Assembly: GCF_000143415.4 (NCBI RefSeq)
Contig: NW_003314333.1
Location: forward strand, 633,207-697,206
Source of the DNA: Selaginella moellendorffii
Taxonomy: Eukaryota; Plantae; Lycopodiophyta
DNA: 64,000 nucleotides
Direction: 5' to 3'
This document shows, in pieces, positions 11,580 through 64,000 of this stretch. Every line of letters begins with the position of its first letter. The first letter of the stretch is position 1. The notes below the pieces were generated by a model that was not told where the DNA came from, did not search any database, and saw nothing but the letters and a program-made list of their open reading frames with translations. Position numbers and translations under genes: made by a program.

Positions 11580-12762
11580 TGTAAGCCACAAATTTTTCCT
11601 TTCCAATTTGCCAGCTTACCTCGTCTATCCGACCAACTCTGCCTTGGCTTGTGCTAAGTTCCCTCGCCAAGGTTCTCGCCTATGGTACCAACTCCTACTT
11701 GGTCCTACTTGGTTTTAGCTACTCACTGCACGAGCAATGGAGTGTTAGCCATCCATCTACGGATTCCCAAATCTCTCCCAATCCCCCTCCCCGGGTTAGA
11801 CTGGACTTAAGGTTCGGCTACACTCCCCGCAGGCACAAGCAGCCAAGCACACCAAGCCTCCAGATTCCTAACACCCCTTGGTACCACAAGACTTGATCAT
11901 GGGACCCTCTAAATCCCAAGTCTTGGGTGCAGCACTTGCTTCGGGACGTCGGGGCGAAACACCGTGGCCTAACGGCCCGGTATGAGTACCTCTACCCCCC
12001 CTCTTCCATCCCGAAGGGAAGGCCCAAGCCCCCGGAAGGGCGAGGACCAATGAGCCACAAGGTACTCAAGTGGGGCACCACTCCACCTGAGCCGGGAGCA
12101 CCGCAGTCGGTTTCCCTTTCGGGAGTGGGAGCTGCTCTTGAGCACTTCCTTGGATGGCCCCTCCGGCACCAGCCAAGTCCATGCTCACTCCCACCCAAGG
12201 CCCCTCGGTCCCAGTCTCAACCTCAAGTCGGTTTGGAAGCCCAACTGGAGAGTCCCTTCAAAACTGGTTCCTGGACCTCACTATCCCTACTATACTTTTG
12301 GAACCCCCTGCAGCCCCCCCCCCCCCCCCCCCCCCCCTGGGAGACGCACGCTTTGGGCTTTCACCCCTTGACCCATATTAGTATTTGGACTTAGTCTCTG
12401 GCTCGATCTCGGACCCAATTTCGGATCCGACTTCGGATTCGGTCTCGGACTCGATCTCGGACTCGATCTCGGACCCGATCTCGGACCCGACCTCAGACTC
12501 GACCTCGGACTCGGTCTCGGACCCGATTTCGGATCTCGGACTCCGTCTCGAACTCGGTCTCGAACTCGGACTCGAACTCGGACTCGAACTCGGTCCCCGA
12601 GTTGGTCTCGGACTCGATTCCGGACTCTATCTCGAACTTGGTCTTAGAGTCGGTCTTGGACTCGATCCTCGACTTGGTCCCATCCGATGAACTCTTTGTC
12701 ATTTCTGTCAAGCTTTTGGGGATCCTTTAGCCTACGACATCTCGGGGAGTCGGTTCCTTACA
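11580..12762 (-). repeat. 3' LTR of element C
   Basis: Direct repeat of 17997-19173. Confidence 0.95.
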
Positions 12763-13547
12763 ACTCTACCACCCATAGAAGAAGTTCGATGCCCACATCG
12801 AACGTCTTGTTTTATCCTATGACTTGTTGACCATGTCTCCGGGGGCATCCCCCCACTTAGCGGTGTGCCTAAGTTAGCCTCCCCGGCCAAGAGCCCATGA
12901 CAACGGAATATAGGTGTCCCTATACTCCTCACCTCACCACGCCCTAGTATGGGGTCGGGACTTGAACCCAGCCTTGCTTTACTAGGGGGTTGGGACTCGA
13001 ACCCAACCTCCGTAGAATACGTCTACGGATTCGACATCCCCGCGGGGAGTCGGGCGTAGTGCCCTACGCCTGGTCGACCTATCCAACCCATGCTAATTAG
13101 CTTACCTTTGGCACGCCTTCGGGTCCCAACATATGCCATTTGCTCAACTTTGCAAATTGATATTTTTAATTGAATTTTGCATAAGTACATAGAGTTCTGC
13201 CTTGCAGAAATTTCTCCACTAGATCTCGCGCGTTCGCTAGGTTCTCCTCCGGTTCCCATGTTGCTTCGCAGTGTGGAAATCCTTTCCACTTCACATGGAA
13301 CTCTCTCACCTCGTGTCCTTGTCGCTTGCTCTTGCGCGCATTGAGGATGGCCTCGACTTCGTATTCCTCTTCCCCTTGGATAACCTCAGGTAAAGGTCTC
13401 ACTTGGTCCTTGCGAAGCGGATCCTCAAAGTACGGCTTGAGTAAGTTCACGTAGAACACTGGGTGCATCTTCCCCATCTCTCGAGGAAGTCGGAGTCGGT
13501 AAGCCATTTTACCGATTCGTGCCTCAATCTCGTAAGGCCCCGCGAAC

Positions 13548-13599
13548 CTGCTTAAGGAACTCAAGATCAATTCATTTACAGGAATACATGCATCTTTAC
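13548..13599 (-). other. Spliceosomal intron (52 nt) in the integrase GPY/F region of element C
   Basis: AAAG|GTAAAG...TAAGCAG|GTTC. Removal joins ORF 13596..13931 to ORF 13166..13570 as KLTQRFAGPYEI. Confidence 0.85.
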
Positions 13600-14017
13600 C
13601 TTTGGGTCAACTTTCGGCTGATCCCACTTGGTAGTCTGAGGTTCTTGGTGTTCAGCCACACCTTCTCCCCAGCTTGGAACTCTACATCCCGACGCTTCTG
13701 GTTCGCGTATTTGGTTTGCCTTTGTTGAGCCCGTTCCAAGGAATCCCTCACTAGATTCCAAATGTTGAGTCTTTCCGCCGTGAATGCCTCCACTGCGGGC
13801 AACTCTCCATGATACTCGGCCACGCCGAGTTCCACAGGACCTTCAATAGCTCGCCCATTGATGACTTCCCATGGACTCACCCCGATACTCGAATGTGGTG
13901 AGTTGTTATAACACATTTCCGCAAGTCCCAAATGACTTACCCAATCAGTCTGGTCTCCCGAGACATAGCATCACAAATAATCCTCCAGCTGCCTATTCAC
14001 CCTTTCCGTTTGTCCGT

Positions 14018-14063
14018 CTGTCAAGAAGTGTTAGTGCCAACAACTTGACTTAATACCCCATAC
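14018..14063 (-). other. Spliceosomal intron (46 nt) in the integrase core of element C
   Basis: ACAG|GTATGG...CTAAC...TTGACAG|ACGG. Removal restores YHPQTDGQTERVN. Confidence 0.9.
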
Positions 14064-16689
14064 CTGTCTGTGGGTGATAGGCTGTGCTGAATTTCAACTT
14101 GGTGTGATACTGTTCCAGGAGAGTCCTCCAGAACCTACTAGTGAAGATCTTATCTTGATCTGAGATGATCTCTTCCGGTCTTCCCCGCACTCGAACCACT
14201 TGTTCGAAGAACAGCTTTGCCACACCTTCCGCATCCACCTCCGTTGTGGTGGGTATGAAGTGTGCCATTTTCGAAAATTGGTCCACCACCACGAATATCG
14301 CATCAAACCCCTCGCTTGGGAGGAGTCCCGTGATGAAGTCCATCGTAAGACATTTCCACGGGCGATCTGGAATTGGGATGCTTTGCAACAAGCCCCCACT
14401 AGCCTTAGTCACGGCTTTTACCTGCTGACATGTTGGACATGTCTTTACATAGTCTTGGACGTCCTTAGCCATATCTGGCCAATGGTACTTCCTTTTGAGT
14501 AAGCCCATCATCTTGGGCACTCCACCGTGTCCCGCAAGAGGTCCGTCATGACACTCTTCTAAGGCCACCTTCCTTAGTTCCCCTTCTGGAATATACACCC
14601 TCGTTTGCTTGTAATAAATGAGTCCGTTGTGTTCCGCATAGCCCGTTTTCTCTTCCGTTGGCAGCTCACCTCTCTGGTGAGCTTCCCGCGCCTCTAGATT
14701 CCTCAGCAACACTTCCTGTGCTAGACCATCGTTCTCATATGCTGTCCGCACATCGTCCCAGAAGGTTGCTGTGGCGCTGGATATTGCCAACCTCAAGCTC
14801 GCTTTTCGACTTAGCGCATCCGCCACGATGTTGCTCTTCCCAGGCTTGTACAGAATTTCGCAATCAAACTCGGCCAAGGCATTGGCCCACCGACCTTGTT
14901 TCCCTCTTAGGTCGGGCTGTGACAAGAAGTGTTTCGTTGCCACATTGTCCGTGTAAACCTTGAAGTGTCTCCCAAGGTAGTGCCGCCACTCCTTGAGCGC
15001 CTTGACCACCGCAAACAATTCCTTCTCGTGGGCAGGCCACTTCCGTTGAGCCTTGTCCAGCTTCTTCGAGAAGAACGCTACCGGATGGTTGTCTTGCTTC
15101 AAAACTGCGCCCAACGCAAAGTCCGAAGCATCCGTTTCTACCTCAAAGTCCTTACCAAAGTCCGGTAATGCCAATACGGGAGCCTTCCTCAACTTCCCCT
15201 TGAGGTGGACGAATGCCGCCTCGCATTCCGCTGTCCACACCATCTTCCCTTTTCCTGTTTGGTCCGTTAAGGGCAGGGCTACTCTCGAATAGTGTCTGAT
15301 AAACTTTCGATAGTAGTTGCATAGCCCCAGGAATGCCCTCAACTCGTGTACATTGGATGGTCGCTCCCATTCCTGGATCGCTTGGACCTTCTCCGGGTCC
15401 ACCTTGAGCCCATCCTGGCCCACCACATGCCCGAGAAACTTTACCTCTTGTTGAGCAAAGTCACATTTGCTCTCTTTAGCATACAGCTTGTGTTCCCTTA
15501 GTTTCTCAAACACCTTCGCCAAGTGTTCGGCATGCTCCTCTAGCGTCTCGCTATAGATCAGGATGTCGTCGATATAGACGACCACAAAGTGATCCAGATA
15601 GGGTACAAAGATGTGGTTCATTAGCGCCAAAAACGTTGCCGGCGCATTGCATAGCCCGAAGGGCATCACCAGAAACTCAAAGCTCCCATACCTCGTTTGA
15701 CAGGTTGTCTTCTTGACATCTTCCTCGGCTACCCTGATCTGGTAGTATCCTGACCTTAGGTCAATCCTTGAGAAGTATTTTGCCTTTCCCAACCTATCGA
15801 ACAGGTCCTCAATCCTGGGCAAAGGGTACTTGTTCTTCTTTGTATACTTGTTGAGCAACTGGTAGTCTATGCACATGCGCATAGATCCATCTTTCTTCTT
15901 CACAAATAACACCGGCGCCCCATACGGCGACTTGCTCAACCTAACATACCCTTTGTCCACCAACTCCTCTAGTTGGCACTTGAGCTCCTTGAGTTCTTTT
16001 TCGTTCAAACGATAAGGGGGACGAACCACTGCCTCAGCACCCTCGACCAGCTCAATCTTATGTTCTATCGGTCGTGCTGGGGGTAGCCCCGCCGGTAGCT
16101 CCTCCAGCATGGTATCCTGGAATTGGTCCAACACCCGCTGGATCACTAAAGGTACTTCTTCCATTCCTGTCTTTTTGTCACTCTTCACCGAAAGTAAGCA
16201 CAAAAAGGCCGCCTTAGTTCCTTTAGTGAGTTGTCCTCTCGTGGACACCAGGTTTAAGCAGGAATCTTTGGCCTTGCTTTGCCCTACCTTTAAATCTTGG
16301 GCCTCCACCCTAGATCTTCTTCCTTGGGCATTCGCCAGTACCACAAGGTTTCTACCTTGTCCATGCAGGGCTACCACGAATCAATTGAACCAGTCCATTC
16401 CGAAGATCACGTCAAATCCCGCCATGTCCAACACGGTGAAATCCATGTCCACCTTCCAAGTCTCCACTTCGACTCTCGCTTGTCGAAGTACCTCATCGGT
16501 GCTTTGGCTACCTTGAACAAACTCTATAGTCCTTGGTTTGCCTAGCCGCTGCACCGTTAGTCCGGCTTGCCGGACTATGTTTGCAGCTACAAAATTATCC
16601 AAAGCACCCGTGTCAATAAGGATTTTAATAAAGCTACCTCCGAGCTTCCCTCGGAGGGCTAGTAGATGTCGCGAATGACTCTCTACCAA

Positions 16690-17937
16690 AGTTGCTCATG
16701 TAATGAGTAACTTTGAGTTAGGGACTGGATCACATACCTCCGTTTGGACTTCACCCGATTTGATGGCCATATTGGCTCTGGCCTTCTTCGGGTAAGGACA
16801 TTACCTCGAGAAGTGTCCCGCTTCACCGCAGTTGTAGCATACGTTGTTTCCCACGCTGCTATACGACTTGACCTTCTTATCCGTGGGTTTGTCTCTTTTC
16901 GCTTGACTCCCCCACGTACTCGCTCGCTGGCCACCGGATTTGCCTTTCCGGAACCCCGAGGACTCATTCTTAGAGAAACTCCTCTTGAATTTCCCTCTGC
17001 TAAACGTTCCCCTTGGTTTGGCCCCTTTGCTAAACGTGGATCCCGACCCCGTCGTGTTCCTTTTTCACAGGTTATCGTTGAAATGCACCTTGATGGCTGC
17101 ATCCAACGCTTCCTTGTAGTTGGTCGGGTTCCACCGCATTACTTCGCCGCGAGCCCAGGTTTGCAAACCTGATATGAAGGCATGGAATGCATCCATATCC
17201 CCCATGTCCGTGACAAGTATCCTCTTTGCCATAAACCCATTCACATACTCCTGAATGGTTCCGGTCTGCTTCAGCCTACTCAGCTCATCCCTTAGGTGCA
17301 GAGTAGCATTCGAAGGAACGTAAGTTGCGCGGATCCTCGCCTTCATCATTTCCCAAGTGGCCACCGGTCCTTCGTTGGCCTCCGTTGTTCTCCACCAAGA
17401 CTTGGCGTTATCTGCCAAGTATGGTTTTGCATATGGGACCTTCTCCGAGCTCGGTAATCGCAACGCTCGGAAGTAGTCCTCCATATCGTAAAACCAATCC
17501 TCCACCACCTTATAGTCGTTCACTCCCTTGAAGACCGGTGGGGGCTTCGGTTTGTACTTGGGAACTGCCTGGGGGACTGATTCCACTTCGGTTTGTTCGA
17601 CCTTGTCTGGTTTTGCCTCAGTCCCTACCGAAGGGTCTGCACCTTCTGCGCTGCCAGCATCCGCAGTCTTTCGCTTTTTCTTTCGCTTCTCGTCACGCTT
17701 TAGCTTGCGTACGAGAGTCTCTAGCAGGGCATTGGTCTGTGCCAATTGCCCTTCTAGAACGTCCAATCGAGCCTTGGATGACCGAACCTCACCACCGGAC
17801 TCCTGTTTGGAAGTTGCCTCACTGGAGTCCTCCTCATGCAACGATTCCTCATCCATAGCCTCTTGTTCGACCGGAGGCTCCAGCTCTGGAGGAGGTTCTG
17901 TTTCCGCCTGGGTTCGCTTACGTCCTGCCCTTGCCAT
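16690..17937 (-). pseudogene. gag: gag of element C
   Basis: 290-aa ORF with retrotransposon gag motifs (WFYDMEDYF, AKSWW, LKQTGTIQEYV). The same frame continues past a TGA to the zinc knuckle CYNCGEAGHFSR*CP. Confidence 0.9.
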
Positions 17938-17981
17938 CTCCCAGCAATCCGCCTCTATCCTTCGCTAGAACTGAGGAAGAG

Positions 17982-17993
17982 GCTCCGATACCA
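17982..17993 (-). promoter_or_regulatory. Primer-binding site (tRNA-iMet type) of element C
   Basis: TGGTATCGGAGC, 3 nt from the 5' LTR, one mismatch to the canonical TGGTATCAGAGC. The same variant is present in B and at 61400. Confidence 0.85.
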
Positions 17994-17996
17994 AAT

Positions 17997-19173
17997 TGTA
18001 AGCCACAAATTTTTCCTTTCCAATTTGCCAGCTTACCTCGTCTATCCGACCAACTCTGCCTTGGCTTGTGCTAAGTTCCCTCGCCAAGGTTCTCACCTAT
18101 GGTACCAGCTCCTACTTGGTCCTACTTGGTTTCAGCTACTCACTACACGAGCAACGGAGTGTTAGCCATCCATCTACGGATTCCCAAATCTCTCCCAATC
18201 CCCCTCCCCGGGTTAGACTGGACTTAAGGTTCGGCTACACTCCCCGCAGGCACAAGCAGCCAAGCACACCAAGCCTCCAGATTCCTAACACCCCTTGGTA
18301 CCACAAGACTTGATCATGGGACCCTCTAAATCCCAAGTTTTGGGTGTAGCACTTGCTTCGGGACGTCGGGGCGAAACACCGTGGCCTAACGGCCCAGTAT
18401 GGGTACCTCTACCCCCCCTCTTCCATCCCGAAGGGAAGGCCCAAGCCCCCAGAAGGGCGAGGACCAATGAGCCACAAGGTACTCAAGTGGGGCACCACTT
18501 CACCTGAGCCGGGAGCACTGCAGTCGGTTTCCCTTTCGGGAATGGGAGCTGCTCTTGAGCACTTCCTTGGATGGCCCCTCCGGCACCAGCCAAGTCCATG
18601 CTCACTCCCACCCAAGGCCCTCGGTCCCAGTCTCAACCTCAAGTCGGTTTGGAAGCCCAACTGGAGAGTCCCTTCAAAACTGGTTCCTGGACCTCACTAT
18701 TCCTACTATACTTTTGGAACCCCCTGCAGCCCCCCCCCCCCCCCCCCTTGGGAGACGCACGCTTTGGGCTTTCACCCCTTGACCCGTATTAGTATTTGGA
18801 CTTAGTCTCTGGCTCAATCTCGGACCCGATTTCGGATCCAACTTCGGATTCGGTCTCGGACTCGATCTCGGACTCGATCTCGGACCCGATCTCGGACCCG
18901 ACCTTGGACCCGACCTCGGACTCGACCTCGGACTCGGTCTCGGACCCGATTTCGGATCTCGGACTCCGTCTCGAACTCGGTCTCGAACTCGGACTCGAAC
19001 TCGGTCCCCGAGTCGGTCTCGGACTCGATTCCGGACTCTATCTCGAACTCGGTCCTAGAGTCGGTCTTGGACTCGATCCTCGACTTGGTCCCATCCGATA
19101 AACTCTTTGTCATTTCGGTCAAGCTTTTGGGGATCCTTTAGCCTACGACATCTCGGGGAGTCGGTTCCTTACA
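17997..19173 (-). repeat. 5' LTR of element C
   Basis: Direct repeat of 11580-12762, adjacent to the PBS. Confidence 0.95.
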
Positions 19174-22589: not shown

Positions 22590-23791
22590 ATTCTCTTGAA
22601 AAGTGTCCTGCTTCACTGCAGTTGAAACATATGTTATTTCTTACACTACTAACAAACTTAGCCTTCGTATCAATGGGTTTGTCTTTTTTCGCTTGCCTTC
22701 ATTTGTACTCCCCCACATACTTGCTCACTGGCGACTAGATCTGCCTTTCCAAAACCCTAAGGATTCATTTTTATAAAACAAATTCCTAAATTTCCCTTTG
22801 CCATATATCCCCTTGGTTTGGCTCATTTGTTAAATGTAGATTCTGACCCAGTTGTGTTCCCCTTTCACAAATTAGCATTGAAATGCACCTTAATAATTGT
22901 ATCCAATGTTTCTTTGTAGTTAGTTGGGTTCCAATGCATCATCTCGCCTCGAACCCAAATCTGTAAGCCTGATATGAAGGCATAGAATACATCCATGTTG
23001 CCCATATCTGTGACAAGAATCCTCTTCGCCATGAATGGATTCACATATTCTTGAATGGTTCTTATCTACTTCAGCCTACTTAACTCATTTATTAGGTGTA
23101 GAGTAGCATTTAGGGAATATAAATTTCATGGATCCATGCCTTCATCATTTCTCAAATGGTCATTAGCCCTTCGTTAGCCTCTGTTGTTCTCCACCAACAC
23201 TTAGCATTATCAGTCAAGTATGGTTTTGCATATAGGACCTTCTTCGAGCTAAGTAATTGCAACACTTAGAATCTTCTATATCGTAAAACTAGTCCTCCAC
23301 CACTTTATAGTCATTTACTCCCTTGAAGACTGGTAAGGGCTTTGGTTTGTAGTTGGGAACTATTCGAGGGACTAATTCCACTTCAGTTTGTTTGACCTTA
23401 TTCGGTTCTGCCTCAGTCCCTGCCAAAGGGTCCACGCCTTTTACACTAGTAGCATCTGAAGTCTTTTGCCTTTTCCTCTATTTTTTATCAAGCTTTAGCT
23501 TGTGTACGAGGGTCTCCAATAGCACATTAGTCTGTGCCAATTGTCCTTTTAGAATGTCCAATTGAACCTTGGATGACTGAATCTCACCACTAAACTTCTA
23601 TTTGGAAGTTTCCTCACTGGAGTTCTCCTCTTGCAAAGATTCTTCATCCATAACTTCTTGTTCTACTGGAGGATCCAGCTCTAGAGGAGGTTCCATCTCT
23701 ACTTTAGCTCTTTTATGCCTTACCTTAGCCATCTTCAAGTAATCTGCCTCTATCTTTCGTTAGAATTAAGGAAAAGGCTCCAATACCAAAT

Positions 23792-24953
23792 TGTAATTTA
23801 CAAATTTTTCCTTTCTAATTTATTAGTTTACCTTGTATATTCGACCACCACTACCTTAGCCTTAGTTAAGTTCTTTTGCCAAAGTTCCCACCTATTATAC
23901 TAGTTTCTATTTGGTTCTACTTGGTTTTAACTACTCACTACACAAGCAATAAAGTGTTAACCATCCATCCATAGATTCCTAATTTTTCTCCCAATCCCCC
24001 TCTTTGGGTTAGACTAAAGTTTGGCTATACTCCTTGCAAGCACACCAAGCCTTTAAATTCCTAGCATCTCTTGGTACAATAAAACTTGATTATGGGACTC
24101 TCTGAATCCCAAGCTTTATGTGCATCATTTACTTTGGGACCCCAGGGGGAAACACCATCACCTAATGGCCCGGTATGAGTACCCTTACCCCCCCCACTTC
24201 CATCCTGAAGGGAAGGTCCAGGCCGCTAGGAAGGAGCAAGGACCAATGAGCCATAAGGTACTCAAGTGGGGCACCACTCTACATGAGTTGGGAGCACTAT
24301 AGTCAATTTCCCTTCTAGGAGTGAGAGTTCTTTTTGAGCACTTCTTTGGATAACCCCTCTGGCAGCACTTGAATCCATATTCACTCCCACCTGAGGCCCC
24401 TAAGCCCCAATTTCAACCTCAAGTTAGTTTAAAAGCACCACTAAAGAGTTCCTTCAAAACTAATTCTTAAACCTCACTATCCTTTCTATACTTTTGGAAC
24501 CTTTTGCAACTGCCCCTTCCTTGTGGGATGATTGCTTTGGGCTTTCACCCCATGACCTATATTAGTATTTGGACTCGATCTTAGACTCGATCTCAAACTT
24601 AACCTTGAACTCAGTCTCAAACTCAATCTCGGACTTGATCTTGGACCTGACGTCAGACTCAATCTCGGACTCGATCTTGGACTCAGTTTTGGTCTCAGAC
24701 TCGATCTTGGATCTCAGACTTGGTCTTAAACTCGGTCTCAAACTTGGTCTCGGAGTCAGTCTCAGACTCAATCTCAGACACAGTTTCAAACTCAGTCTCG
24801 AACTCGATCTCGGACTCGATTTCAAACTCGGTCTTGAACTCAATCTCGGAGTCGGTCTTCGACTCAATCTCAAACTTAGTCTAATTTAATGAACTTTTTA
24901 TCATTCCGGTCATGGTTTCAGGGATCCTTTAGCCTAGAGTTGGTTTTCTTACA
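23792..24953 (-). repeat. 5' LTR of element A (CpG-depleted homolog of the element C LTR)
   Basis: Colinear with 17997-19173, with many C>T/G>A changes. Confidence 0.85.
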
Positions 24954-39576: not shown

Positions 39577-39655
39577 CGACGTGTACTCGGTTTCTTAGGA
39601 CAAGACTGTCAACTATAAAATTTCTCTAGAACCCTAAAAAATGTAGGGGATTTCC

Positions 39656-42685: not shown

Positions 42686-42963
42686 CTAGCTTGTTAACCT
42701 CGTTGACAATTCCTTTCTGTGCCTCCTCACTTAGAGCTGCCAAGAAGATCAACATTAATTTCCGTTGTGTAAATAGTTAGGTGTTAATTGTAATACATCT
42801 TGTGATTCTGGACTGTGGTATTGTTGCTGGAAACAAGAATGGTAAATCTTTGCAAACTGGCCAGAACGCCTTAAACCCTAGGTTGGCCTACCTTGCGGTT
42901 TGTTAAATAATAGTATTAATTCTGTGTTGTAAGCTATTCGAGAAGTTAGGTTATCTTGGCGCA

Positions 42964-45292
42964 ATGCAGGAGTTCCGGGATGCAAAGGCAGTTGTGGAAG
43001 CAGTTTTGAAGATGGGTGATTGCGGTTTGTCTCGTAGAGAGAAGCTCAGCTGGGATAGCGCAAGGGTTAAGGTCCTGGATTTGTTCGACAATGAGACAGC
43101 TGGTACCATCATTGACGCATTACTCCAGCTTACAGAGTCGACCCGATTGGACTATTTCCTCCCTGCCGATGCTGCGACCAAATCTGCTCTACTGTCACTC
43201 GGTACGTCAATTTGTGTTGATCCGGCATTACTTAGCGCTTGTTCTGCAGTTAGCAGGAAAAGGCGCAGAGTAGATCCATTTGGGGAGGTGAAAGCTCAAG
43301 CTTCTGCGCTGGCATTGTCTTTGGAAACGTCTTATCAAGAGATGACAGAAGAAAAGCTCGGGAGCATCGATACCCGGATAGATCTGCTGGCGCCGGACAT
43401 TCTTACAGAAGACGCGACCTCATTTTCATACATGGGACGGAAAACTACGGTGGACATACTGAAGTTTTTCCAAGCTGTGAAGAAGGGTCCGAGCGTGTAC
43501 AGCACGAACCCGAATCTTGCCATTCGGTTCATAACTGGGACCCCTGGGGCTGGAAAAACGTACAGCGTTGCAGCCGCAGCTGGTTACTTATATGCCAGCG
43601 AGCGAAGAAAAGCTACCGGCGCTGCTGCTGTTGCGTATATCAACGCCCGAGTGTTCATGGAAGATCCATCTTACAATTTATGGCGTGCGCTCATTCTAGC
43701 CTATGCTCGTGATGAAGCGGCTCTCAACGCGCTGAAATGTGTCGACTACGAAAGGCCGGACAGTCTGCTCCAATTTCTCAAAGAGCGAAAGAAGCTGCAA
43801 AAGGTTTACCTTTTATTCGACGATGGCAACTCGCTACATGACAAAGCTATATTCTCCGGCCAGATCAGATTTGCTGCTCGATCTTTTGTCGAGTCTCTTG
43901 CTCAGGTGTGCGTCGTCGTCTTCTGTGCATCCATAGAAAGCAAGCTGCGCAAAGAGCTTATAAAGGACGCTGCTCCGCCTCAACTTATCGTTTGCGGAGG
44001 GTATACGGTAAGTCCCTGTTTTGGAAAACTGGTTATTCACCGAGCTGTTTTGTTAGAGAAAAGAACTAGTTGCCTGCATTGGCATGTACCTCGAAACTAC
44101 GGACCAGCGTTTGATTGATGGAGAAATTGCTTATACTCTGCAAAGAACTGGTTCTGTGCCGCAACTGATTTATCATCACTATTTCGGCGAGGACGGTGAA
44201 CTGGATAGTGCTATCAGTCGGCTCAAGGATGAGATTGCGGACTTCATCCTGAACCGGAGCAGCTGGGAGGTTAGTGAACTTGCCAGAGCACTACGGGGGG
44301 AGCAGGTTGCTCGCTTGACGGTTGCGATGGATACCCGTGCCTTCTACAGGGGTCGAGATGGAAGAGGGAAGTGTTTAACTGGTGAACTCCGTTCGTATGC
44401 ATTTGGCTTAATTTCGGAGAAGGTGAAGGCGGAAAGTTTGGAGGAAGGGAAGGTTGAGGTTCGGAGGTGGCTCGGAATGATCATGAAGGACAACAACCTG
44501 GTGCGCATTGGCTGGAATGTGGAGGAGGCTACCATCTTGACGCTCAAGCTGCTGACCCCTTGTATAAGAGTGGACAACAATGACCTGAGCGAGAAAATTT
44601 TGATCAAGCCTGCAGGAGTGCGGACAGTCAAGGGGAAGTTTGGGATAGATGAGCTGAAAGATGTGGGCCTGTCACCTACACTTTTCCTTCCGAACTTCAA
44701 CCACATCGGAGCCGATGTTTTCTACTCCGATGAGGAGTGGTTAGTCGTCTTCCAGATTACCGTTGCTAACAATCCCGAGAAGCATCATAAGAGAACTCTA
44801 GAGGTTGCAGACGAGTTGTTTGCAGTGACACAAAGAAGGACGATGCTAGTTTGGGTGGTGTACACTCCTACAGAGACAGATACTTGGGTGGTTAAGGATT
44901 GGGAACACCCTCATGTTACTCAAGTTTTCATGTCTTTCGGTCAGCTGTCCAGCCATCTCAAGGATATCGATTCCGCACTTCGGGTGCTCAAGAGCAATCG
45001 CTACTCAAAGAAGCCGGCCGAGGACGTCTGTCCAGAGTGCAAGTGTGCTGAAACCTGCAGGGATGATAAGTGGATAAGCTGTACTTACTGTAACGTCTGG
45101 TTTCACTGGCTCTGCACCACTGCTACTGAGGAAACTTGGGAGTTGTGGTTGTGTGATAACTGCCGTGCTCCTGGTAAGTATCAAACCTGTCTCTTGCTCC
45201 TTCTGACGCCTCATTTTGCAGATGATGATCCCGATGTGGAATTGCCTCCACCAGTTCCGGATGCTGGTCGAAGGCGTGGAATCTCCTTCTAG
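42964..45292 (+). CDS. Crinkler/RHS-effector-like protein: P-loop NTPase + restriction-endonuclease-fold domain + C-terminal PHD finger
   Basis: Walker A GTPGAGKT, Walker B LLFDDG, GGYT..E / TGSVP, REase-like PNFNHIGADVF...VVFQITV, and PHD CPEC...WISCTYCNVWFHWLC...WLCDNC. Intron 44008-44056 joins the two ORFs in frame. A second in-frame intron lies at 45174-45221. Confidence 0.75.
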
Positions 45293-50408: not shown

Positions 50409-53400
50409 TATGAGTGCATAGAATATAGAAAGAGAATACAGAAATATGCATATCAATTAGCCCAAAAACCCTAGCTTATATATAAGAGCGAGTGGTCCAG
50501 ATTGAAACCAATCCGACGGCTACCAAAATCCCACTATGCTAATATTAGTATACGGCATCGTAGCCGTACACTTAGCCCTCACATCATCCCCTCCTCTCGG
50601 AATAATGGAAGACTATCAGGATTCTCTTGTAGACGGGTTGGGATCTGGAGGAACATCAGGAGGAGGTATCGGCGGATCTGTAGATGGTATTAACTGCTCC
50701 TAATCCTTTTGTATGAAATGTTTCAACCACTGCACATGCACAATGTTTGGAGGATCGGCCTACTGGATGTCATGCTAAACCTCATAAACTTGTGGTCCAA
50801 CTTGCCGCAACACCCGATACGGTCCTTTCCACTGTGCAAGGAGCCCCTTAGATAAACCACATATCGTAAGATGGGGAAAACGGACTAACACCAAATCATC
50901 CATTTTGTACTCTGCAAGTGGACGATGATGGGAGTTGTAGTGCCGTTGTTGTCCCACTTGTACGCAGCCTAAGTGTTCGGCAAACTCTACTCGGACAAGT
51001 GGAAGAATGCTTGTCAAATATTGATCCCATGACCTAGCATTCGCAGCTCGTGGCAATCGCGAAGGTAAACCTAGCTCCGTTGGTAATATTGGATCATGAC
51101 CATATAGGAGTTTATATGGTGAAGCACCAACAGAACTCTGCACCCCAGTGACATACGCATACCGAAGAGACGGCAAATGACCATCCCAATCCGAATGCTG
51201 AAAGTTCACATACTTCGCAATCATCCCCTTGAACGTCCGAATGAGCCATTCCACCAGACCGTCTGATTGTGGATGATAAGCACTCGTGAAAGTGTGGCGA
51301 ATCCCCAACTGAGACGTCAAAATATGAAATGCCTCAGCCATAAATGCGGGACCATTATTTGAAAGAATCCGCTCTGGATAAGAATGCTGGAACACCACTC
51401 GATTGAGGAGGAAGTATCCAACAGTAGTTGCAGAGGCACTAGCAAGAGCACCAACTTCCACCCAATGAGTCAAATAATCAAAAGCAATAATAACATATTA
51501 ATTGCCAGCAGTCAACTGTGGAAAAGGTCCCATAAGATCAAATGCCACCAACTCAAACGGACGGGAAACTGCAATTGACTCCAACCGTCCTTCCGTAGCC
51601 CGAGGGGGAGTATTACAAGCTTAGCACCAAATGCAGCTACGCACATACCGGATAATATCATGTCGCATCTCCGGCCAATAGAAAGACTTGCGTAGCTTCT
51701 CAATTACATGACGATGTCCCATATGCCCACCTAGAACAGGAGAATCATGGTAGGCATGGAGAAATTGCAGAATAAAGATAGAAGGCACTACCAGCCATAA
51801 ATGATTATCAGGATCTGTCCTCACAAAATAAAGAAGGCCATCTTCAAGACGATATTGAGAATGTAAATGCCGGAAAGGCAAGTCATCAGCAAGTGATGCA
51901 GGATTCTCAAACCCATCTCGAAGCCTTCGAATCCAGGGCTCAATCTGTTGAGCCTCGCGAACCTCATCAAGCGAAGGTAGATTTTGCTCTGCACCTTATG
52001 GACACTGAACGTCAAGTATAGCAATTGTCGACGGCACAGAATCCTCGTCTAGAAAATCCACAGATGCTGGAATGAAAAGCTCATCAGAAACATGAGAAGA
52101 GAGTGAAGAAGGAAGAGGAGCTCAAGAAAGGGCATCAGCATCAGCCATAGAACTCCCTGGGCGGTGAACAACATCAAAATCATATATCTGAAGCTTCAAA
52201 GCCCACCGAGCAGTACTACCAACCAGGTTCTTCCGCTTTAATAACGAAGTAACAGTAGCATGGTCACCTTCAAGTAACATCTAAGAACCATGTAGATATG
52301 CATGAAGTTTCTCAAAACCCTAGATTGTTGCTAAACACTCCTTCTCTGTCGTGTCGTGGAGTAGTTCATCTCCGCTGGTTGTAATATACGGCTTATATAT
52401 GCAATGGGATGGCGCTGACTAGGCACACTCAAGCTCTCTTGCATTAACACACCTCTAAGACCAATGTCAGAAGCATCCACGTGCAAAATAAAAGGTCGAA
52501 TGTAGTCAGGATATGCCAAAATCGGAGGAGTTGTCAATAACTCTTTGATATCCCCGAACGCCCGCTCACAATCTGGAGACCAAATGAAAGACGATGTTGA
52601 TGACTTCAGCAACGCTCGCAATGGTGCAGTGCGATCAGAAAGATGATCCACAAAACGCCTGAGATATTGCACCTTGCCCAAGAAGCGCTACACGTCATTC
52701 ACACACTTTGGAGTAGGGAACTTTAGAACAGCCACAAGTTTGTCAGGATCAACTTGCAAACCCTCACAAGAAATACGGTACCCAAGATAAGTTGTGTTCT
52801 TGGATCTAAACACACACTTCAACCGCTTCAGTTTTAAACCAACATTGCATAGCCGATCCAACACTTTACAAACATCATGAACGTGCTCCTCCTACGTCCC
52901 CTCCGAGTGGATCAAGACATCATCAATGAAGTTAGCAGTCATCTCTGACATATTGCAAAGAACCTTGTCCATCATCTGTTGAAAAGTTGCTGGAGCATTG
53001 TTCAAACCAAATGGCATGACCAAGAACTCATACAAACCAAATGGTGTACGAAAAGCAGTCTTAGGAATATCTTCTTCGGCCATCGGTACTTGCCAATACC
53101 CAGAAGCAAGATCTAGCTTGGTGAACCAACGACTTCACCCTAGACGATCCAAGAGATCAGCAGTGTGAGGAAGAGGGTACACATCTGGGATCGTTACGTC
53201 GTTTAACGGACGATAATCGATGCAGAAACAAATACTCCCATCAGACTTCGTCACAACATGAGGTTCACATGCCCAAGGACTCCGCGACTTCCGAATAACA
53301 CCCTTCTCCAACATCTCCTTGACATTTGCACGTAAAATCTTGATCTCCTTTGGTGACCGATGACGAATAGGAACCTTGATTGGACGAGCATCCCCAGTTG

Positions 53401-55426
53401 GAATCGGATGACGTGTGGCAATCTTGGCTCCAGACGATAGGTCAAAGTCAAAAAGATCAGAATACTCCTTCATGAGCTGGTCAACTGCTGCAACACAAAG
53501 ATCGTCGGAGGGATCGAAAAAGAGAAGAGCAGAACAAGATGGAAACACATGAGGAAATAGTGGGGAAACAAAAGTAATGGAAGCAGAGGTAGAAGTAGAG
53601 GGATGAAGAAGTACGGAAGTGAGAGGAATGGATGAAACATAAGGAAGTATGAGACAAGGGGGAGAAACCTCAAAGTCACACTTGGCATGATTGCGCTGCA
53701 ACCAATCCATACCAAGAATGAGGTCAAAAGCTTGACTCAACACCACCCACAACGACTGCAACTCAAGCTCGAGATCGCCCACACGCACAACCAGGTCTGC
53801 CTCATCCCGTGCACATGCATGTGTACAGCCGTTGCCATAAAGAATGAAAATTGGTTTTGCCGCATGACGCAAGTGTAGATGACAACGTGTGGCAACAGGT
53901 CAAGCAATAGAAGATAAACTCGAACCTGTATCAACCAACACGGAGAGAATAATAGGAGACCTCTTGTTATAAAGACGAGCTTGGAAAATAAACACTAGAT
54001 GAACTGGTGCCGAGTGAACCGCTTGATGATACTTCTGAAAGAAAGATGGAGGGGTCATTGACTCATTCGCGCAAGGTCCCTCCATTACTCGCGTGACTCC
54101 TCGTTTCCTGGAGGCATCTCGGTGTCCAAACCTTCCATTGCAGCAGCACCAACGGGACGTTGCTGACGCCAAGGTCTCCACCCAGGAAATGGAGGTCGCC
54201 AATCCGGAAAACGTCGACAACGCCGATAAGTATGACCAACTTCATCACATGCCCAACAGCGAACATCACGGCCATGACCACGTCCTCGCCCTTGACCTTG
54301 GACTCGAGCAGCAGCAGCATCAACCTCCATTGAAACAGGACCATCACTCATAGGAAGTGGAGCTGAAGGATGTGCAGCGAGAAGTGGAAGAGGCGACGTC
54401 TTATAACATTGTGCCAAACAAAGAGCATCGTCAAGGGTGGCAGGAGCAAGTGCATGCACAAGTCCGACAAGATCTTGAAGAAGTCCTGGCCACAACATTC
54501 CTAGCTTGATCCGCTCTGACATATATGGCTCCGCACGAAGCAAAAGACTTCGAAAACGAACACCAAATTGCATCACTGACTCAGATGGCCATTGGCGAAG
54601 ACGATGCAATTGTTGGAAAACATCATCACAGTCATTGGCATGTCTGAAGGCGTGTTTGAAGACATCCGGAAGAACACTTCAATCCCCGCAAGTGGCTGCT
54701 CCCAAACCGTTGTACCACTGCAATGCCGTCCCTTGGAGACACGTGGGAAACTCACGCAAACGTCGAGCATCATCCCAAGAATGATATGTGGCAATCACCA
54801 TAAAGTGATCGAACCAATGGTACACATCATCCCCAGGATTCCTGTGAAAGAACTCTGGCCGAACGCGAGGATTGGCACCAAGAGCAGGAGGAGTTGTACC
54901 ATGGGCCGTGAACGCCGCCATCAACTGAGTTTGGTTGTTCAATTGCAAGTGCATAGCATCAAGCAATTGTACCAACTGCTGCTCCAAAGTCAAAGGAGGA
55001 GATTGCTGATCTGCCATGGAGACGAATGAAAAAGAAAGAGCAAAAGAAGAGAAATGACAAAAAACTAGAAGGAAATGGTAGATCTAGACAATGCAAAAAG
55101 TTAGATCTAAACCAAAATCCTGAAAGGAAAGAACAAAAGAAAGGAAATGGAAAAAGTTAAATTTAGACAATGCAAAAAGTTGGATCTAAACTGAAATCCC
55201 AAATTTAAGCACTCCCCAGGGACAATCAAAGGTGCCCCTCAACTCCACCAATGCGAATGCTTGGAATATAGAAAGGGAATATAGAAATATGCATATCAAT
55301 TAGCCCAAAAACCCTAGCTTATATATAGGAGTAAGTGGTCCAGATTGAAACCAATCCGACGGCTACCAAAATCCCACTACACTAATATTAGTATACGGCA
55401 TCGTAGCCGTACATTTAGCCCTCACA
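50409..55426 (-). mobile_element. Ty3/gypsy element D (short LTRs, no chromodomain), full length but pseudogenised
   Basis: 175-bp LTRs at 50409-50583 and 55252-55426. 4-bp TSD GAGC, PBS TGGTGGAGTTGAGGGG, PPT GAGAGGAGGGGATGA. Gag has a CWACDEVGHTYRRC knuckle; LVDTGSS (PR), FIDD (RT), HVDASD (RH) and YHPQSDGLVE (INT) are present, with many stops. Confidence 0.93.
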
Positions 55427-57202: not shown

Positions 57203-57700
57203 GTGTACAACAAGAAAATGATCAATCTCCTGTTTGTGAAGGTGAGAAACGGCACTACACTGATTTTCTACATACCTGCCTGGAAGGAGACCGTGTTGGA
57301 AGCCAAGACGGACTACAGTGAGTATGAGGTTCAGTACTACATCATAATGCCAGAGAACATCAAGCAAACTGACTTGCTGCCTGATGAGCAAGTTGGGGAA
57401 GTCCCCATAGTCGATGTACAGTTTAAGAAGCTCTCTGACGTCCGCAATGATTTAGGCTACTTCGACCAGCGGCTCATGTTGGCAGAACCTAGCATCCTGC
57501 AGCCGCGAGTGATGGACTATTGCATGGGCAGAAACCGTGACGACTACACACCTTGCGGAAACTGGGTTGAAAGGGGTGGCTACTGGCATACTGCAAGTTA
57601 CACGTGCAGGAAGTATGGCCTTTTTTGTGCTTTGATGCACTTGCTCTTTTTCACTTGCAGCAAAGACGTGATTCCAGACAAAGGCTATTTCAAGAAGTGA
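57203..57700 (+). CDS. Hypothetical protein (exon of an orphan gene, probably 5'-truncated)
   Basis: 165-codon coding-like ORF preceded by a splice-acceptor-like sequence. No family recognised. Confidence 0.4.
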   Translation: MYNKKMINLLFVKVRNGTTLIFYIPAWKETVLEAKTDYSEYEVQYYIIMPENIKQTDLLPDEQVGEVPIVDVQFKKLSDVRNDLGYFDQRLMLAEPSILQPRVMDYCMGRNRDDYTPCGNWVERGGYWHTASYTCRKYGLFCALMHLLFFTCSKDVIPDKGYFKK

Positions 57701-58284
57701 CGGCTCGAGTCAGGTGAGCGCAGTGAAGGTGAGCACTGCGTTTCTGGATTTCAAAACTAACTACTTCAGACAGATGTATGCTAATTTTTTTGGTGGGAGA
57801 ATTGCCCGCGTGCCGCTTATGACAAGGTGAGTGGTTCAGTCTCATGAGCGGATTTGCAGTTGGCAAAAGGTGTCCAAGCTGAGTTTCTTTTGAAGCTGGC
57901 GGCAAATGGATGAAGGCTTTGAGATCAAAAGAAGCTTCTTCACAAATTTGAAGAAATTGAGCTTAATTTATTGCCTTGAGCGTTTTGATGGAGTTATAAA
58001 ATTCTACCTTGAGCTTTTCACTGTGGAGTACATGTTTGAACTTTTGCAAAGATGATTTCTCAAAAATGTGGATTGAGACGTACATCTGCTTTGTGGGTCA
58101 TTGGTGCAGGACAAACGAGATGATGACGGTGTGAGGATTCCACCATTTTGTCACTGACATTGGAGTGCCCAAGGGAGTTAATAATATCGATAATCTGTAT
58201 GGTGATCAGCAGTGCCTATGCGCCTGAAATATTTGAGCACATTAGTATGAGCGAGGTATAAGGTTCTAGGGTTAGGGTCTCTCA

Positions 58285-60452
58285 ATGCGCTCGTGGCGTG
58301 GGAAGCGCCAGCGCGAGTATGTTACGGAGAGCCAAGCAAGGGAGGCGGTGAAGAAGATCCTGGCACTGGAGGAAGACGATCTGATTGATTCAGGTAAGCT
58401 GACGTCGCTGCCATACCCCGGAATGGGACGGTCCCCTTCTTCCATTCGGCCACCGGTGGATTTCAATTTTGTGGGCAAGGACACGTTGGATGGCTTGGTG
58501 AGGGAGTGGCATTTGGGATACACCGAGCTGGTTGTTTACGGGCCCAAGGGCATCGGGAAATCGTCTGAGTTTCGAGCGCTTGCGTGCCTCTTATACCAAA
58601 AGCTCAACACTGTGAAAGCCAAGCAAGAGTTGAGGGCTCGGGTGGTATTCCTGTGGGCGATCACGCTGCTGCAAGATATAGTTGCGGCCTTAAAGGATGC
58701 GCTCTTGTTTTCCTATCTGGTGGACAGTGTCGAGAATGTGGATGGCTGGCAAGAGGTTGAAGCTGTTATCAAGGCCATCAAGTCTACGCAAGATATCATC
58801 TCCTTCATCAGCAGTCGCAAGGGTGGCTCCAAGCCGGAGGTTTTTCATTTCCTGGTGGACGGTGGCGAGAAGCTAGACCCCGCGGATTTTCTCGGAAAGC
58901 CGGTGTTTAACTCGGAGCACCTTTCTGCAGTGGGTCGCCATTTACAGCAGGTTTTGGCAACAGGCGAAAGGGTCTGGTGGTGCACAAGCTCAAGAGCCAG
59001 CCAGGCAATCCAGGAGCTACCGTTTTACACTTACGGAAATGAAGGCTTCAACAACGTAAGTTCACTCTCACTTTTTTCTTTTTCTGATTTTATTTTTATT
59101 TTATTTTATTTGGCTGCATGCAGGATGAGTACTCCATCTATGCTTCAGACTGTATACTGGGGAAAATTCCTGCTCGTCGTGCAAGCATCTACTTCTACAC
59201 CGGACTTGTGCCACTTTTCCTCGACGTACTATGCGATTCGTGCAACTCCGTGATATGTGAAACAAAGCTACAGAGCAGTTTTCGGGATCGCAAGTTATGG
59301 GAGCGCAGCGGCTTAGCTGCAGCCATTCTGCTGGATGGCGACGACGAAGCGGATGCTTCAGCGCTCGAGGAAGAAGACGAGTACTGGGACGCGGTGATTA
59401 AGACGTTTTGTGAACATACCGAGCTAAAAGCTGTTTCGAGAAAGGCAGATCGAATAGTGGTGCAAGAGGACTACTTGACCGACGAGTCCATGGCAAGTCT
59501 CGACCCAACTTACGTCCTCAACGCTGGAAAGGGCCAATACTGCTCGCCTTACATAAAAACAGTCTACGTGAAGACCGTGCGCTCCAAAGAAGAAGTTGCC
59601 AAGCCCCATGCCAACGGAGTGTGGTTGGCATATGCAAGCCGCAAGCTGTCAGATACAGGTGAAATCGACTGGTCGTGCCTGGGCCACCTCTGCGAGGACG
59701 TTCTAGCCAGCGTGATTCCAAAGAAAGGCTTGGTCCTCGGGCAGCTTAAAGTGCGCGGAGCTATCTGTGTCGAAACGTTTAACAGCATCCCGTCGAGAAC
59801 CATCAAGTCACTGGTACAGCTGAAGCCAAATTCAGGGTATTATTACAAGCCTTGGGAGCGTGCCTTCCCGGACGTGGATGGCGTGATTGTGTGGGTGGAC
59901 GAGAAGGGCGAGCTGCATGTTGTAGCGCTGCAGTTCACCGTCAACATTGACAGGCATTTACATTCTGCGGACCAGTTCATGAGCTTGGCATCCCTGAAGC
60001 GCTGGTTCCCAGACATTGAAGAGTATGTGATGGACACGGCATCGACGTCGCAGCCGCCAGTGTCGCCATCGACGGTGAAGCTGCACTTCGCATTCATTGG
60101 CTGTTCTTCACGGCCTGGCGTTTGCAGTAGCGAGAAGAAGTTCACACTCAAGAAGCGGAGGCGTACGGTGATCGGAACGCCTGCCTACATGCTGCACGTT
60201 CAACCATTTGATACTGACTCGATTCCAGGTTTGAGTGCGGATGATTACAAAGTGTTGGTAGACATTACTCAGCACAGGACGTGGACAGGAAAGAGCAACT
60301 ACACACAAGTCTGTGATGACGGGTTTGGCCTCCTCGCTCTCTCCAGAAAAGAGCTAGAGAAAATGGCCAAGGAGGATTTTGGAATCCCTGACCCAGGTCA
60401 TAACGTCTACAAAAACAAGGCACTGCTTATCAATGCGATGCTCTCAACGTGA
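58285..60452 (+). CDS. Second Crinkler/RHS-effector-like protein: P-loop NTPase + REase-fold domain + short helical (HeH/SAP-like) tail
   Basis: Walker A GPKGIGKS, Walker B FLVDGG, GFN.DE / TGLVP, and REase-like P...FPDVDGVIV...VALQFTVN. Intron 59056-59123 joins the two ORFs in frame. Confidence 0.75.
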
Positions 60453-61052
60453 CAATTGACATTGCTAACTCAAATAAAAATAAAAGAGTTAAAATTTGCT
60501 ACAGCCGAGTCAGAAACATGATGATTTGTGGTTGGCACTGTTTTTACAAGTATTATTCATCATTTTTGTTCTTGAATATTGACCTTCTTTAGCTGGTGTC
60601 CAGGGTTTATATTTTAAAAGAGGAATTGAGGAAGGTAGCATTAGAAGAATGTTATAACGAGAATCTTTTGCAAGACATAATAGAGTGCTTAAAACAATAC
60701 ACTAACTGAATATAACTAAGATATAAAAGAATATGTAAATGCATGTTCGACATGTTAACAGGTGGAGGTTTATTGTAAAGTCTCTTAATCCCAGACCATT
60801 TGTGGAAATGCCTTACCATGGACGTTATCATGGAATGCACCCTAATTAATAGGTTTGATGTGATATTTGTGGCGGTAGATTGATTTTAAAAAATGGTGCA
60901 TTTTATACCCATCACAACAGAAATGGATGTGGAAGGTGTAGTGAATATGTTCTTTGAAGAAGTGGTTCAGATGCAAGGAAATCCAGAAGAAATTTATTTC
61001 AGACTAAGATAAAATATTTATTAGTAAGTTCTAAAAAACTTTCTTATAGTAG

Positions 61053-61915
61053 TGTAAGCAATTAAAAAGGACAACTTGAGAGATAATTCATAGTTTAAAT
61101 ATAAAGGGAAAAGGCCCATGAACAAAAGTGCACCCTTTTTTCCAATCAGTTAAGGGTCTTGGGATAATTAGGGTTAAGTGTCCTTAGGTTTAAATAGTAC
61201 TGGGTTGGGTGTGGTAGGTTTAGTTTGCTCCAGTTGGGCTCAACCCAAAGGATAGGGTGTTTAAAGAGTAGGGTTCTCAGGAGAGTTGTGGCTTTCAGCT
61301 TCCATTCACGAGGGCGTGAACTTGCAAAAAGGGCCCTGCAATCAAATGATCACCTCTTTAGCCAGTTGGCTTAGGGTGTAAGGGATAGGATCCTAATAAT
61401 GGTATCGGAGCCCAATTCGATTCTTGTGGTTGACGAGTGAGGCAGAATATTCTGAAGGAATATTCAACATGGTGGATCTAGAGGGAGAACCAAGGTTTGG
61501 TAAACCCTAAGAGAAGGACCATGGTGACCGGAGGGTGGCCTAAGTATGATCGCGTGTTAAGCACCAGGTCAGGATAATAGGATAAGGAAAGGGCCCTGCA
61601 ATCAAGTGATCACCCCTTTAGCCAGTTGGCTTAAAGCATAGTGGATTGTAAGCAACTAAAAAGAATAACTTGAGAGATATAGGGTTTAAATATAAAAGGA
61701 AAGGGCCCATAAACAAAAGTGCACCCCTCAATCCACCAAAGATGATGACTTGAGAGACATGGGGTTTAAATATAGAGGGAAATGGCCCATGAACAAAAGT
61801 GCACCTTTTTTTTCAATCTGTTAAGGGTCTTGGGATAATTAGGGTTAAGTGTCTTTGGGTTTGAATAATACTAGGCTAAGTGACCTCCCGGGAAGTCCAA
61901 AGTTAGAAGCTTACA
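61053..61915 (+). mobile_element. Cassandra-like TRIM (5S-rRNA-like LTR), chimeric
   Basis: TGTAAG...CTTACA ends and TSD AGTAG (61048-61052, 61916-61920). LTR copies at 61053-~61211 (truncated) and 61647-61915, with a PBS at 61400-61411. Segment 61844-61898 resembles the 5S rRNA A-box to C-box region. Confidence 0.8.
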
Positions 61916-61966
61916 AGTAGTATCACACTAAATTGAAATTCAGCACAAACTATCACCAATAAAAAT

Positions 61967-62013
61967 GTATTAAGTATTGAGTTAAGTTATATAGTAATAA
62001 CCAGTCTTGATAG
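61967..62013 (+). other. Intron remnant (47 nt) at the same position as 14018-14063
   Basis: GTATTAAGTATTGAGTTAAGTT...TAACCAGTCTTGATAG|ATGGACAAACAGAAAGG aligns to intron 1 of element C and its downstream exon. Confidence 0.85.
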
Positions 62014-62195
62014 ATGGACAAACAGAAAGGGTGAATAGACAATTAAAGGATTATTTATGATATTATGTCTCTGAAGACTAAATAGACTTGGTAAATTATT
62101 TAAGATTTGCAAAACTATGCTATAACAATTCACCCAATTTGGTATTCATAAACTATCAAAAGCACAGAGACATAGAGTATTAATTTGGGGAGAAG

Positions 62196-62390
62196 TGTAA
62201 GCCCTTGAATTTGGACTTCCCAAGATGTCACCCATCTTAATATTATTCAAACCCAAGGACGTTTAATCCCAAATATCTCAATGCCCTTAACCGATTAGAA
62301 AAAGGGATACACTTTTATTCATTAATCTTTTTATTTTATATTTAAACCCTATTGAATTATTTTTCAAGTTGTTCTCTTTGATTGTTTATA
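62196..62390 (-). repeat. Degenerate solo Cassandra-like LTR (a further fragment lies at ~62545-62640)
   Basis: Reverse complement of the 61647-61915 LTR, including the 5S-like GGACTTCC...GTCACCCATC segment. Confidence 0.7.
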
Positions 62391-64000
62391 ATTCACTTTG
62401 TGATGGATTATAAACAACCATACTTCCTTGCAAGTGCATGCCCTTATGAACAAAAGTTAAGAGCCTAACCAAACCATTATTCAACATATGATGCAATTCC
62501 CTTGGTTAGACCCAAGACCCCTTTGATATTAAATATAAACTCATGAATTTGGACTTTTTGAAAGGTCACTCAGTTTAGTACTATTCAAACCTAAGAACAT
62601 TTAACTTCAAATATCCCAAAATCCTTAATTGATTAAAAATGAGCTTATTGCGGTTCGATTAAATTCGAATGGTCATTTAATTTGTGCTTGTTTATGTTTT
62701 TATATTTTATACCTAGGACATTACCTTTATGTTGGACAAGTATATGATTCGATGATATGAATTTAGTGTTTGGGTCTTGTGAATGTAAGTTAAAGAGTGA
62801 TTATTAGTTGCTTTACAACTATTGATTGCTTGTAGACTTCATAGAAGATTTTGAATACTTATTTCGCTCAATGATGATTTAGCAATAATAGACTTGTTTT
62901 ACTAGATAATGTTATGGAGGATTGTGTTGTTAAACTTACATGATTTTTCCATGTTAGCATATCGACTCTACCTCTATCAATATCATTTAGTTGAGTTTAG
63001 TCTGTGGTGTTAGATTATATTGAGTCTTGGATGTGGTGAATCATTCCTTGATGATGTATTATCTATAATTGAGTTTTATTAAAGGTTTAGTCTCAGATAC
63101 TAACTAATGTATTTTCTACTTTGGTTAGTTTAGTTGCTAAAGAGCTTTGAGTGGTGATTCACTCTTTCTTTCTTCTAGCTTTGTTCTAGTGTTGATAGAA
63201 TGGAAGTGATGCTTTGTTATTGACATTATTGACATTGAGATTGGAGTGGAATGAGATATCTCCCTATAAAATTAATATTGAGTTTCATTAGTCTTGATGT
63301 AAATAGTATTGATGATTTAGTTGTAGCTTGTGTTATTGACATTTGTGCAATTGCTAGTTAGCAATTATATTGCCATTCAAATAAGTTGAGTAGCAAGTTG
63401 AGTTAGTTGTGTTTTAGATAAGATTTTTTAGTAGGAGTTGAGCTTTGAGCTTTTCCTTGAAAAGTGATTCAATCATCAACTATGTTAACTTCACGAGAGG
63501 AAAAGTTGGTGATTAATATTGAAGATATTGGTTCTTTATTGGATTTGAGTTAAGATATATCGATCATTAATAATTTCTTTTACACTTATTATAAAGTGAG
63601 TTATGTCTTATTATACATAGATGGATTCATGAAGAATCTATTTGGTAGTCATTCGTTAAACATAGCTTTATAGTGCTTGGTTTTTAGACTACTTTTGCAT
63701 TATGAAGTTTAACTTATGAATGTGTTGAGAAGGATATTATGGGTTGTACCATGATTTCTTTTTTAGTATTGAAGATAGTTCATATGAAATTCGTGATTAT
63801 TGTTAAACAAGATTTAGATATAAGCTTCTTCAAGTTTTTGGTTCTTTGAGTCTTATACTTATTATTCTATTTGTTAAAAATTGTTGGGGAAGGTATTTTG
63901 GCTTATTAACTTCGATGTTGAAGTTAGTATTTGCATTTAGCAATCAATAGTGACTATCATCTAGGATAATTTATTATCATTGTGAAAGGTTTTACTTGAT

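Follow-up and report, generated by a model that had tools for sequence, protein, structure and literature searches.

Intron loss is the classic proof of retrotransposition. Plant LTR elements are generally without introns, with Ogre and EVADE as the exceptions named in the available text of a 2025 review (PMC12786077). Could an intron nevertheless be handed down within a retrotransposon family, through reverse transcription, and what would keep it there? The question is raised by a decayed integrase gene in the window (the whole stretch of 64,000 nucleotides of Selaginella moellendorffii that was analysed, contig NW_003314333.1, positions 633,207 to 697,206 of the forward strand). At positions 61967..62013 (+) this gene holds a 47-nt segment, starting with GT and ending with TAG, which we interpret as a predicted intron: a decayed counterpart of the first integrase intron of element C, a Ty3/Gypsy element on the other strand of the same window.

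The segment falls after the codons for ...YHP.. and ahead of those for ..GQTER, in phase 1 and at the position that the 46-nt segment of C (14063-14018, -) also occupies. The two can be aligned with 33 of 46 aligned bases identical and a global score of 48, a value matched by none of 20,000 shuffles (mean 11.6, sd 5.3, maximum 36). The exon parts on either side of it are identical to those of C at 39/48 and 100/132 positions. An earlier note on this DNA had reported a GT...TAG insert at the same codon position as in C and its alignment to the 46-nt intron; both observations hold, and the coordinates, ends and strings that it quoted are correct. It also recognised the remnant, but underestimated its extent, which is about 60598-62195. 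The 5' part (60598..61052, +) covers the integrase zinc finger and core and is identical to C 14605-14112 at 323/450 positions, with 85 of its 127 differences being C>T or G>A. An 863-bp insertion interrupts the gene at 61053..61915; the 3' part of the core, which contains the intron, follows at 61916..62195 (+), with a deletion after 62145, and is truncated at 62196 by a second insertion. The remnant's own LTRs and target site duplication (TSD) are gone, and the site of intron 2 is not reached. A continuation to that site was sought and not found (scores of 112 and 138.5, against shuffle maxima of 111.5 and 143), nor was there a second match. By part, the remnant is 72-81% identical to C, which as it stands falls short of the 80% nucleotide threshold for a family; C>T/G>A decay accounts for two thirds of the differences, and the remnant likely belongs to the same lineage as C.

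Inverted repeats surround the remnant, and we considered capture by a DNA transposon. This was rejected, as the repeats come from a small LTR-type element that is present twice, in opposite orientations. The copy at 61053..61915 (+) is TRIM-like, with TG..CA ends, the TSD AGTAG and a primer binding site (PBS) near 61400; further parts of this element lie at 62196-62400 and 62536-62639, and its LTR segments are internally repeated. The 3' end of the remnant is cut by a reversed copy together with a partial copy. On its other side the remnant adjoins a long ORF ending at 60452. Long ORFs are present in 42907-45292 and 58276-60452 (+), with P-loop-like motifs at 42907 and 58276; no Pfam match was obtained for the two ORFs tested, 42907-44115 and 59088-60449. 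Host genes lie on the plus strand of the window: one encodes a PPR protein (31874-34141) and is partly duplicated upstream (30946-31699), and another is an RtcB-like ORF (39647-41092).

Element C itself (11580..19173, -) is 7594 bp long and carries five premature stops. Its paired TG..CA LTRs (5' LTR 17997..19173, -, 1177 bp, with a poly-G of 18; 3' LTR 11580..12762, -, 1183 bp, with a poly-G of 24), its PBS and its 5-bp TSD, GTTAT, identify it as a true product of retrotransposition. Pfam finds Retrotrans_gag, RVT_1, RT_RNaseH, rve, SH3_Tf2-1 and Chromo, and the protease DTG motif is present; the domain order, Gag-PR-RT-RH-IN with a C-terminal chromodomain, is that of a Ty3/Gypsy chromovirus. 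Unspliced, the main frame runs for 1295 codons, and two short ORFs, 106 and 113 aa long, come after it. The available text of PMC3350952 describes SM1-Galahad, a Galadriel-clade chromovirus of S. moellendorffii, as an element of ~7.5 kb present in hundreds of copies, with LTRs of more than 1 kb bearing a poly-G of 11-25 nt, a 13-bp PBS, an ORF of 1295 aa and two short ORFs, the last of 113 aa with a chromodomain. C matches this description in its length, LTRs, poly-G tracts, 13-nt PBS and ORFs of 1295 and 113 aa, and its ORF2 is 318 bp where 316 is given there for SM1-Galahad. We therefore refer to C as SM1-Galahad-like, an assignment made purely by structural match to the published description. 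Protein searches returned no close family member, the best identities being 38%, about 51% and 34%.

The element is part of a triple nest (6557-24936, -), in which an old copy, A, holds an element B, and B holds C. Copy A has an LTR reaching 24936 and gag to 22595, resumes at 7667-6557, and differs from C by a K2P distance of 0.23-0.26. Element B (7673-22589, -) has the TSD ATTCT and no coding match to the proteins of C. Its LTRs (7673-8650 and 21043-22050) differ by a K2P of 0.005 on the U5 side, less than the 0.022 of the LTR pair of C although C sits inside B, and at 14/247 positions on the U3 side; gene conversion or unequal decay may be the cause.

Evidence of splicing in family transcripts comes from sequencing runs. 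Run X15 (70,015 contigs, 25.8 M letters, of which 3 contigs aligned) appears to be transcriptome-like; its RNA label is a guess, with which the few matching contigs, against 61,510 in the DNA run X1, agree. Its contigs are 90-99% alike to C and derive from other copies. Record 9 maps to 14064-15816, 13598-14017 and 13219-13545 with contiguous coordinates in the record. It thus skips exactly integrase intron 1 (14018..14063, -; 46 nt, GT..AG, with a CTAAC branch-like motif) and also 13546-13597, the same cut as intron 2 (13548..13599, -; 52 nt, GT..AG, directly ahead of the GPY/F motif and the chromodomain), shifted by 2 because GT follows both ends. Record 11 maps to 18037-18100 and 17042-17970, skipping exactly a 66-nt GT..AG segment (17971..18036, -) that consists of the last 40 nt of U5, a 3-nt spacer, the 13-nt PBS (17993-17981) and 10 nt more. 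Each junction is seen in one X15 family contig, with the PBS splice and the integrase splices on different contigs; in these contigs introns 1 and 2 and the PBS-spanning intron have the GT..AG ends and the precise removal expected of U2 spliceosomal introns. Record 10 lacks a 157-nt gag/protease segment (16581..16737, -), with a GT donor at 16737; its removal takes out the protease DTG motif and brings in a stop directly behind Gag. In copy C the corresponding 3' end lacks an AG, and we regard this segment as a splice with less certainty than the other three. The confirmed RNA run X23 (9 of 9.2 M reads aligned) has bin depths of 0.61 and 0.27, equivalent to ~104 bases ahead of intron 1 and 46 behind it, 150 in all, and at the flank of intron 1 position 14105 is covered and 14116 is not. 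This fits one 150-nt read spliced at intron 1, as judged from depth arithmetic rather than from a listed joint. In X24, 3 of 9.2 M reads aligned, partially and at less than 90% likeness, and are uninformative.

The protein that would result from splicing argues in the same direction. In the integrase D,D(35)E triad, intron 1 falls after the second D and ahead of the E, and taking it out leaves exactly 35 residues between the two; the HP-to-KL spacing becomes 139, against a median of 140 in 44 homologs. Read without splicing, the frame ends within intron 1 and does not get as far as the catalytic E, and it follows that an active integrase needs splicing. SM1-Galahad is described as having three ORFs in the available text of PMC3350952, the main text of which has 0 occurrences of 'intron' or 'splic'; here, the breaks between the ORFs are two spliced introns, to which the PBS-spanning intron is added. 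The PBS-spanning intron has a decayed homolog in the older copy A (23741..23856, -; 82% over 116 nt), with the donor GT kept and the acceptor decayed. The U5/PBS region of element B is also homologous to it (74% over 85 nt), and a TAG directly follows the PBS there; from this resemblance, B is possibly a non-autonomous partner with the same splice. Two loose ends in the DNA run X1, at 17982 and 18020, resemble B-type sequence.

It could be argued that a single insertion was duplicated at the DNA level to give both loci, or that what looks like an intron arose as a chance indel. The LTRs and TSD of the remnant are lost, such that its origin cannot be read directly, and 121 of the 181 differences from C belong to the C>T/G>A decay class, both of which leave room for these explanations. 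However, the remnant and C have no flanking DNA in common, as 57500-60590 and 62420-64000 are without a match in 1-30000. The K2P distance between them is 0.30-0.38, against 0.022 between the two LTRs of C, and for transversions the difference is ~60-fold (5.8-6.6% against 0.09%). Three classes of substitution were tested for pN/pS. Among them, T>C/A>G shows a bias towards synonymous sites (12/96 against 5/213, pN/pS 0.19, p=7e-4), indicating that rounds of replication under selection separate the two lineages; for transversions the ratio is 0.51 (p=0.09) and for the decay class 0.73 (p=0.047). An indel is further contradicted by the exact skips in the transcript contigs and by the D(35)E spacing after removal. 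Taken together, we consider duplication or a chance indel very improbable, and the proposal in the earlier note that the insertions were independent stands, DNA-level duplication having failed.

The remnant is supported as an older, separate copy of the family, not a duplicate of C. As C arose by retrotransposition after its split from the lineage of the remnant, intron 1 has been reverse transcribed one or more times. The remnant's intron 1 (72% identity) has diverged to about the same degree as its exons (76-81%), which argues against recent conversion. The earlier suggestion that the intron predates both insertions and was inherited through reverse transcription is thus supported by the lack of shared flanks, the divergence, the synonymous bias, the paired LTRs and TSD of C, and the splicing in family transcripts; we hold with high confidence that the introns are real and inherited in this way. 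By itself, the remnant is one datum, and it adds age to what appears to be a family-wide intron trait.

If spliced RNA were also copied, intronless copies should turn up in genomic DNA. In X1, where 61,510 contigs aligned, the summed depth inside intron 1 is 205,719-217,428, and no splice-junction joint is found among the best-supported 15 of 91 joints (depth 207-462). Some contigs have one-base insertions in intron 1 (47-nt forms, 4 and 16 contigs), at about the position of the extra base of the remnant. Since the joints were incompletely counted, the absence of intronless DNA copies is indicated, not proven. A possible alternative is leaky splicing with selection, as in Ogre, in which both RNAs are copied and intronless copies are rare or lost, either through a cis signal in the introns (for packaging or export) or through silencing. 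Rare intronless copies could be hidden in the X1 joints beyond the best 15 of 91, and this reading would also fit the sister family SM2-Galahad, described in the available text of PMC3350952 as a single continuous ORF, a structure that may be ancestral or may have come about when introns were lost in reverse transcription. Against it are the lack of a splice-junction joint among those best 15, the divergence of the remnant's intron 1 at about the level of its exons, and the X1 contigs with one-base insertions in the intron, and we think it rather improbable.

More distant elements bear on the origin of the introns. In 80 distant genomic relatives (39-54% identity), scored by tblastn, the site of intron 1 is spanned without an insert of more than 3 aa in 74, split by small frameshifts in 2 and not covered in 4. 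The site of intron 2 is spanned without an insert in 58 and not covered in 21, and one relative has a solo-LTR-like insert. This 305-nt insert (L023:973-1276), in a distant element and only a few codons from the intron 2 position, was rejected as an intron on account of its TG..CA ends and 5-bp repeat, which mark it as a probable solo LTR. A second, distant Gypsy element in the window (50775-54678, -) has an integrase ORF (50775-51497) that reads through both intron sites, and the single ORF published for SM2-Galahad agrees with this. At the protein level, HPxxDGxxE is unbroken in 104 of 123 proteins, the other 19 being motif variants or truncations, and there was no clear intron-type stop at this motif among the 123. 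No GT[AG]AG donor was found within 70 nt upstream of the PBS at four PBS sites in distant loci, which are too few to weigh. Introns 1 and 2 are thus most likely gains specific to this lineage, the direction being deduced from the comparison of sequences.

How the introns could be kept may be explained by the PBS-spanning intron, which is absent from the earlier note and is the likely reason for their retention. An RNA without a PBS cannot be primed by tRNA, as is established for LTR elements. The 66-nt intron covers the whole PBS, and therefore an RNA spliced there cannot be primed. The element would make two classes of RNA, a spliced messenger and an unspliced genome. The spliced mRNA would encode full Gag-Pol with an active integrase while lacking the U5 end and the PBS, and the 157-nt splice would probably give a Gag-only form. 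From the unspliced RNA no integrase would be made, yet it would be the sole template that tRNA can prime, with integrase acting in trans on such genomes. The model requires coupling, in that any RNA which retains the PBS intron has to retain both integrase introns as well, or intronless copies would arise; all-or-none control at the level of packaging, export or start site, as in BARE1, would be needed. That the introns are inherited because spliced RNA loses its PBS and would not be copied is, on this reasoning, the explanation we favor with reasonable though not strong confidence. Our broadest proposal is of a splice-gated LTR retrotransposon, in which the U5/PBS intron assigns each transcript, all-or-none, to be either messenger, lacking the primer site, or genome, unable to give integrase, while integrase is supplied in trans, and the gate allowed spliceosomal introns to be gained and retained in the catalytic core through many rounds of reverse transcription; here we see the case for and against as evenly balanced.

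The coupling could also be met without a gate. In BARE1 the packaged RNA is uncapped and unspliced, and no DNA copy of the spliced form was found, according to the available text of PMC3735527. If the family of C sorted its RNA in the same manner, by start site, capping or packaging, the introns would still be real and inherited, the all-or-none coupling would be provided, and the PBS intron would be an ordinary 5' UTR intron and a by-product. The X1 joints, as far as they were counted, are consistent with such pools. Nevertheless, any RNA spliced at 18036-17971 loses the PBS whatever its cap, such that the gate would act at least in addition, and we consider BARE1-like pools unlikely as the whole explanation, with more to be said for them than for leaky splicing.

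The PBS gate, as the preferred model, has partial precedents in Ogre and BARE1. In Ogre (Ty3/Gypsy, Tat clade), the intron is kept in genomic copies and splicing is required for the whole polyprotein, as cited in the available text of PMC6317226 and PMC12786077. The family of C is alike in that a retained intron must be spliced for the full polyprotein. Ogre, however, has one spacer of ~274 bp between GAG-PROT and RT, in contrast to the two introns of 46-52 nt inside the integrase of C, one of them within the catalytic triad, and another removing the PBS; moreover, C is not of the Ogre/Tat type, as it has a chromodomain and its protease and RT are in one frame. BARE1 and EVADE (Ty1/Copia) splice for Gag, according to the available text of PMC3735527 and PMC5580714, and the 157-nt skip likewise gives Gag and then a stop. 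In BARE1, translation and replication use different RNAs (PMC3735527), an arrangement that is only proposed for the family of C. In those two elements Pol is read from unspliced RNA, whereas the unspliced RNA of the C family cannot encode a complete integrase. For foamy viruses, the major splice donor is upstream of the PBS. Their Pol is translated from an mRNA that has been spliced and needs packaging in trans (PMC7828637, available text), a route that the family of C would share, although foamy viruses use one large subgenomic splice and C has short internal introns. Penelope-like elements keep introns when they retrotranspose, among them one in the 5' UTR at the pLTR boundary, and the significance of this is called unknown in the available text of PMC8557442; unlike C, they lack tRNA priming and do not belong to the LTR/integrase elements. 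Host transcripts started in mouse LTRs often splice past the PBS (PMC12853362, available text). Our literature search found neither short introns within the integrase of an LTR element nor the PBS intron of the C family described, and these introns are also missing from the available text of PMC13148404, PMC2864245, PMC1142308 and PMC12853362; Repbase/REXdb, subscription papers and supplements may hold a description.

The interest of this family is thus in the combination of an intron-split integrase with a PBS-spanning intron. A retained intron that splits the active site of integrase is a natural way round the rule of intron loss, and the PBS gate would be a simple, testable answer to how messenger is separated from genome RNA. 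It also means that a high-copy family, published as broken into three ORFs in the available description, is likely complete after splicing. Surveys based on ORFs may misread other families of this sort, in which transposition reporters that rely on an intron would not work.
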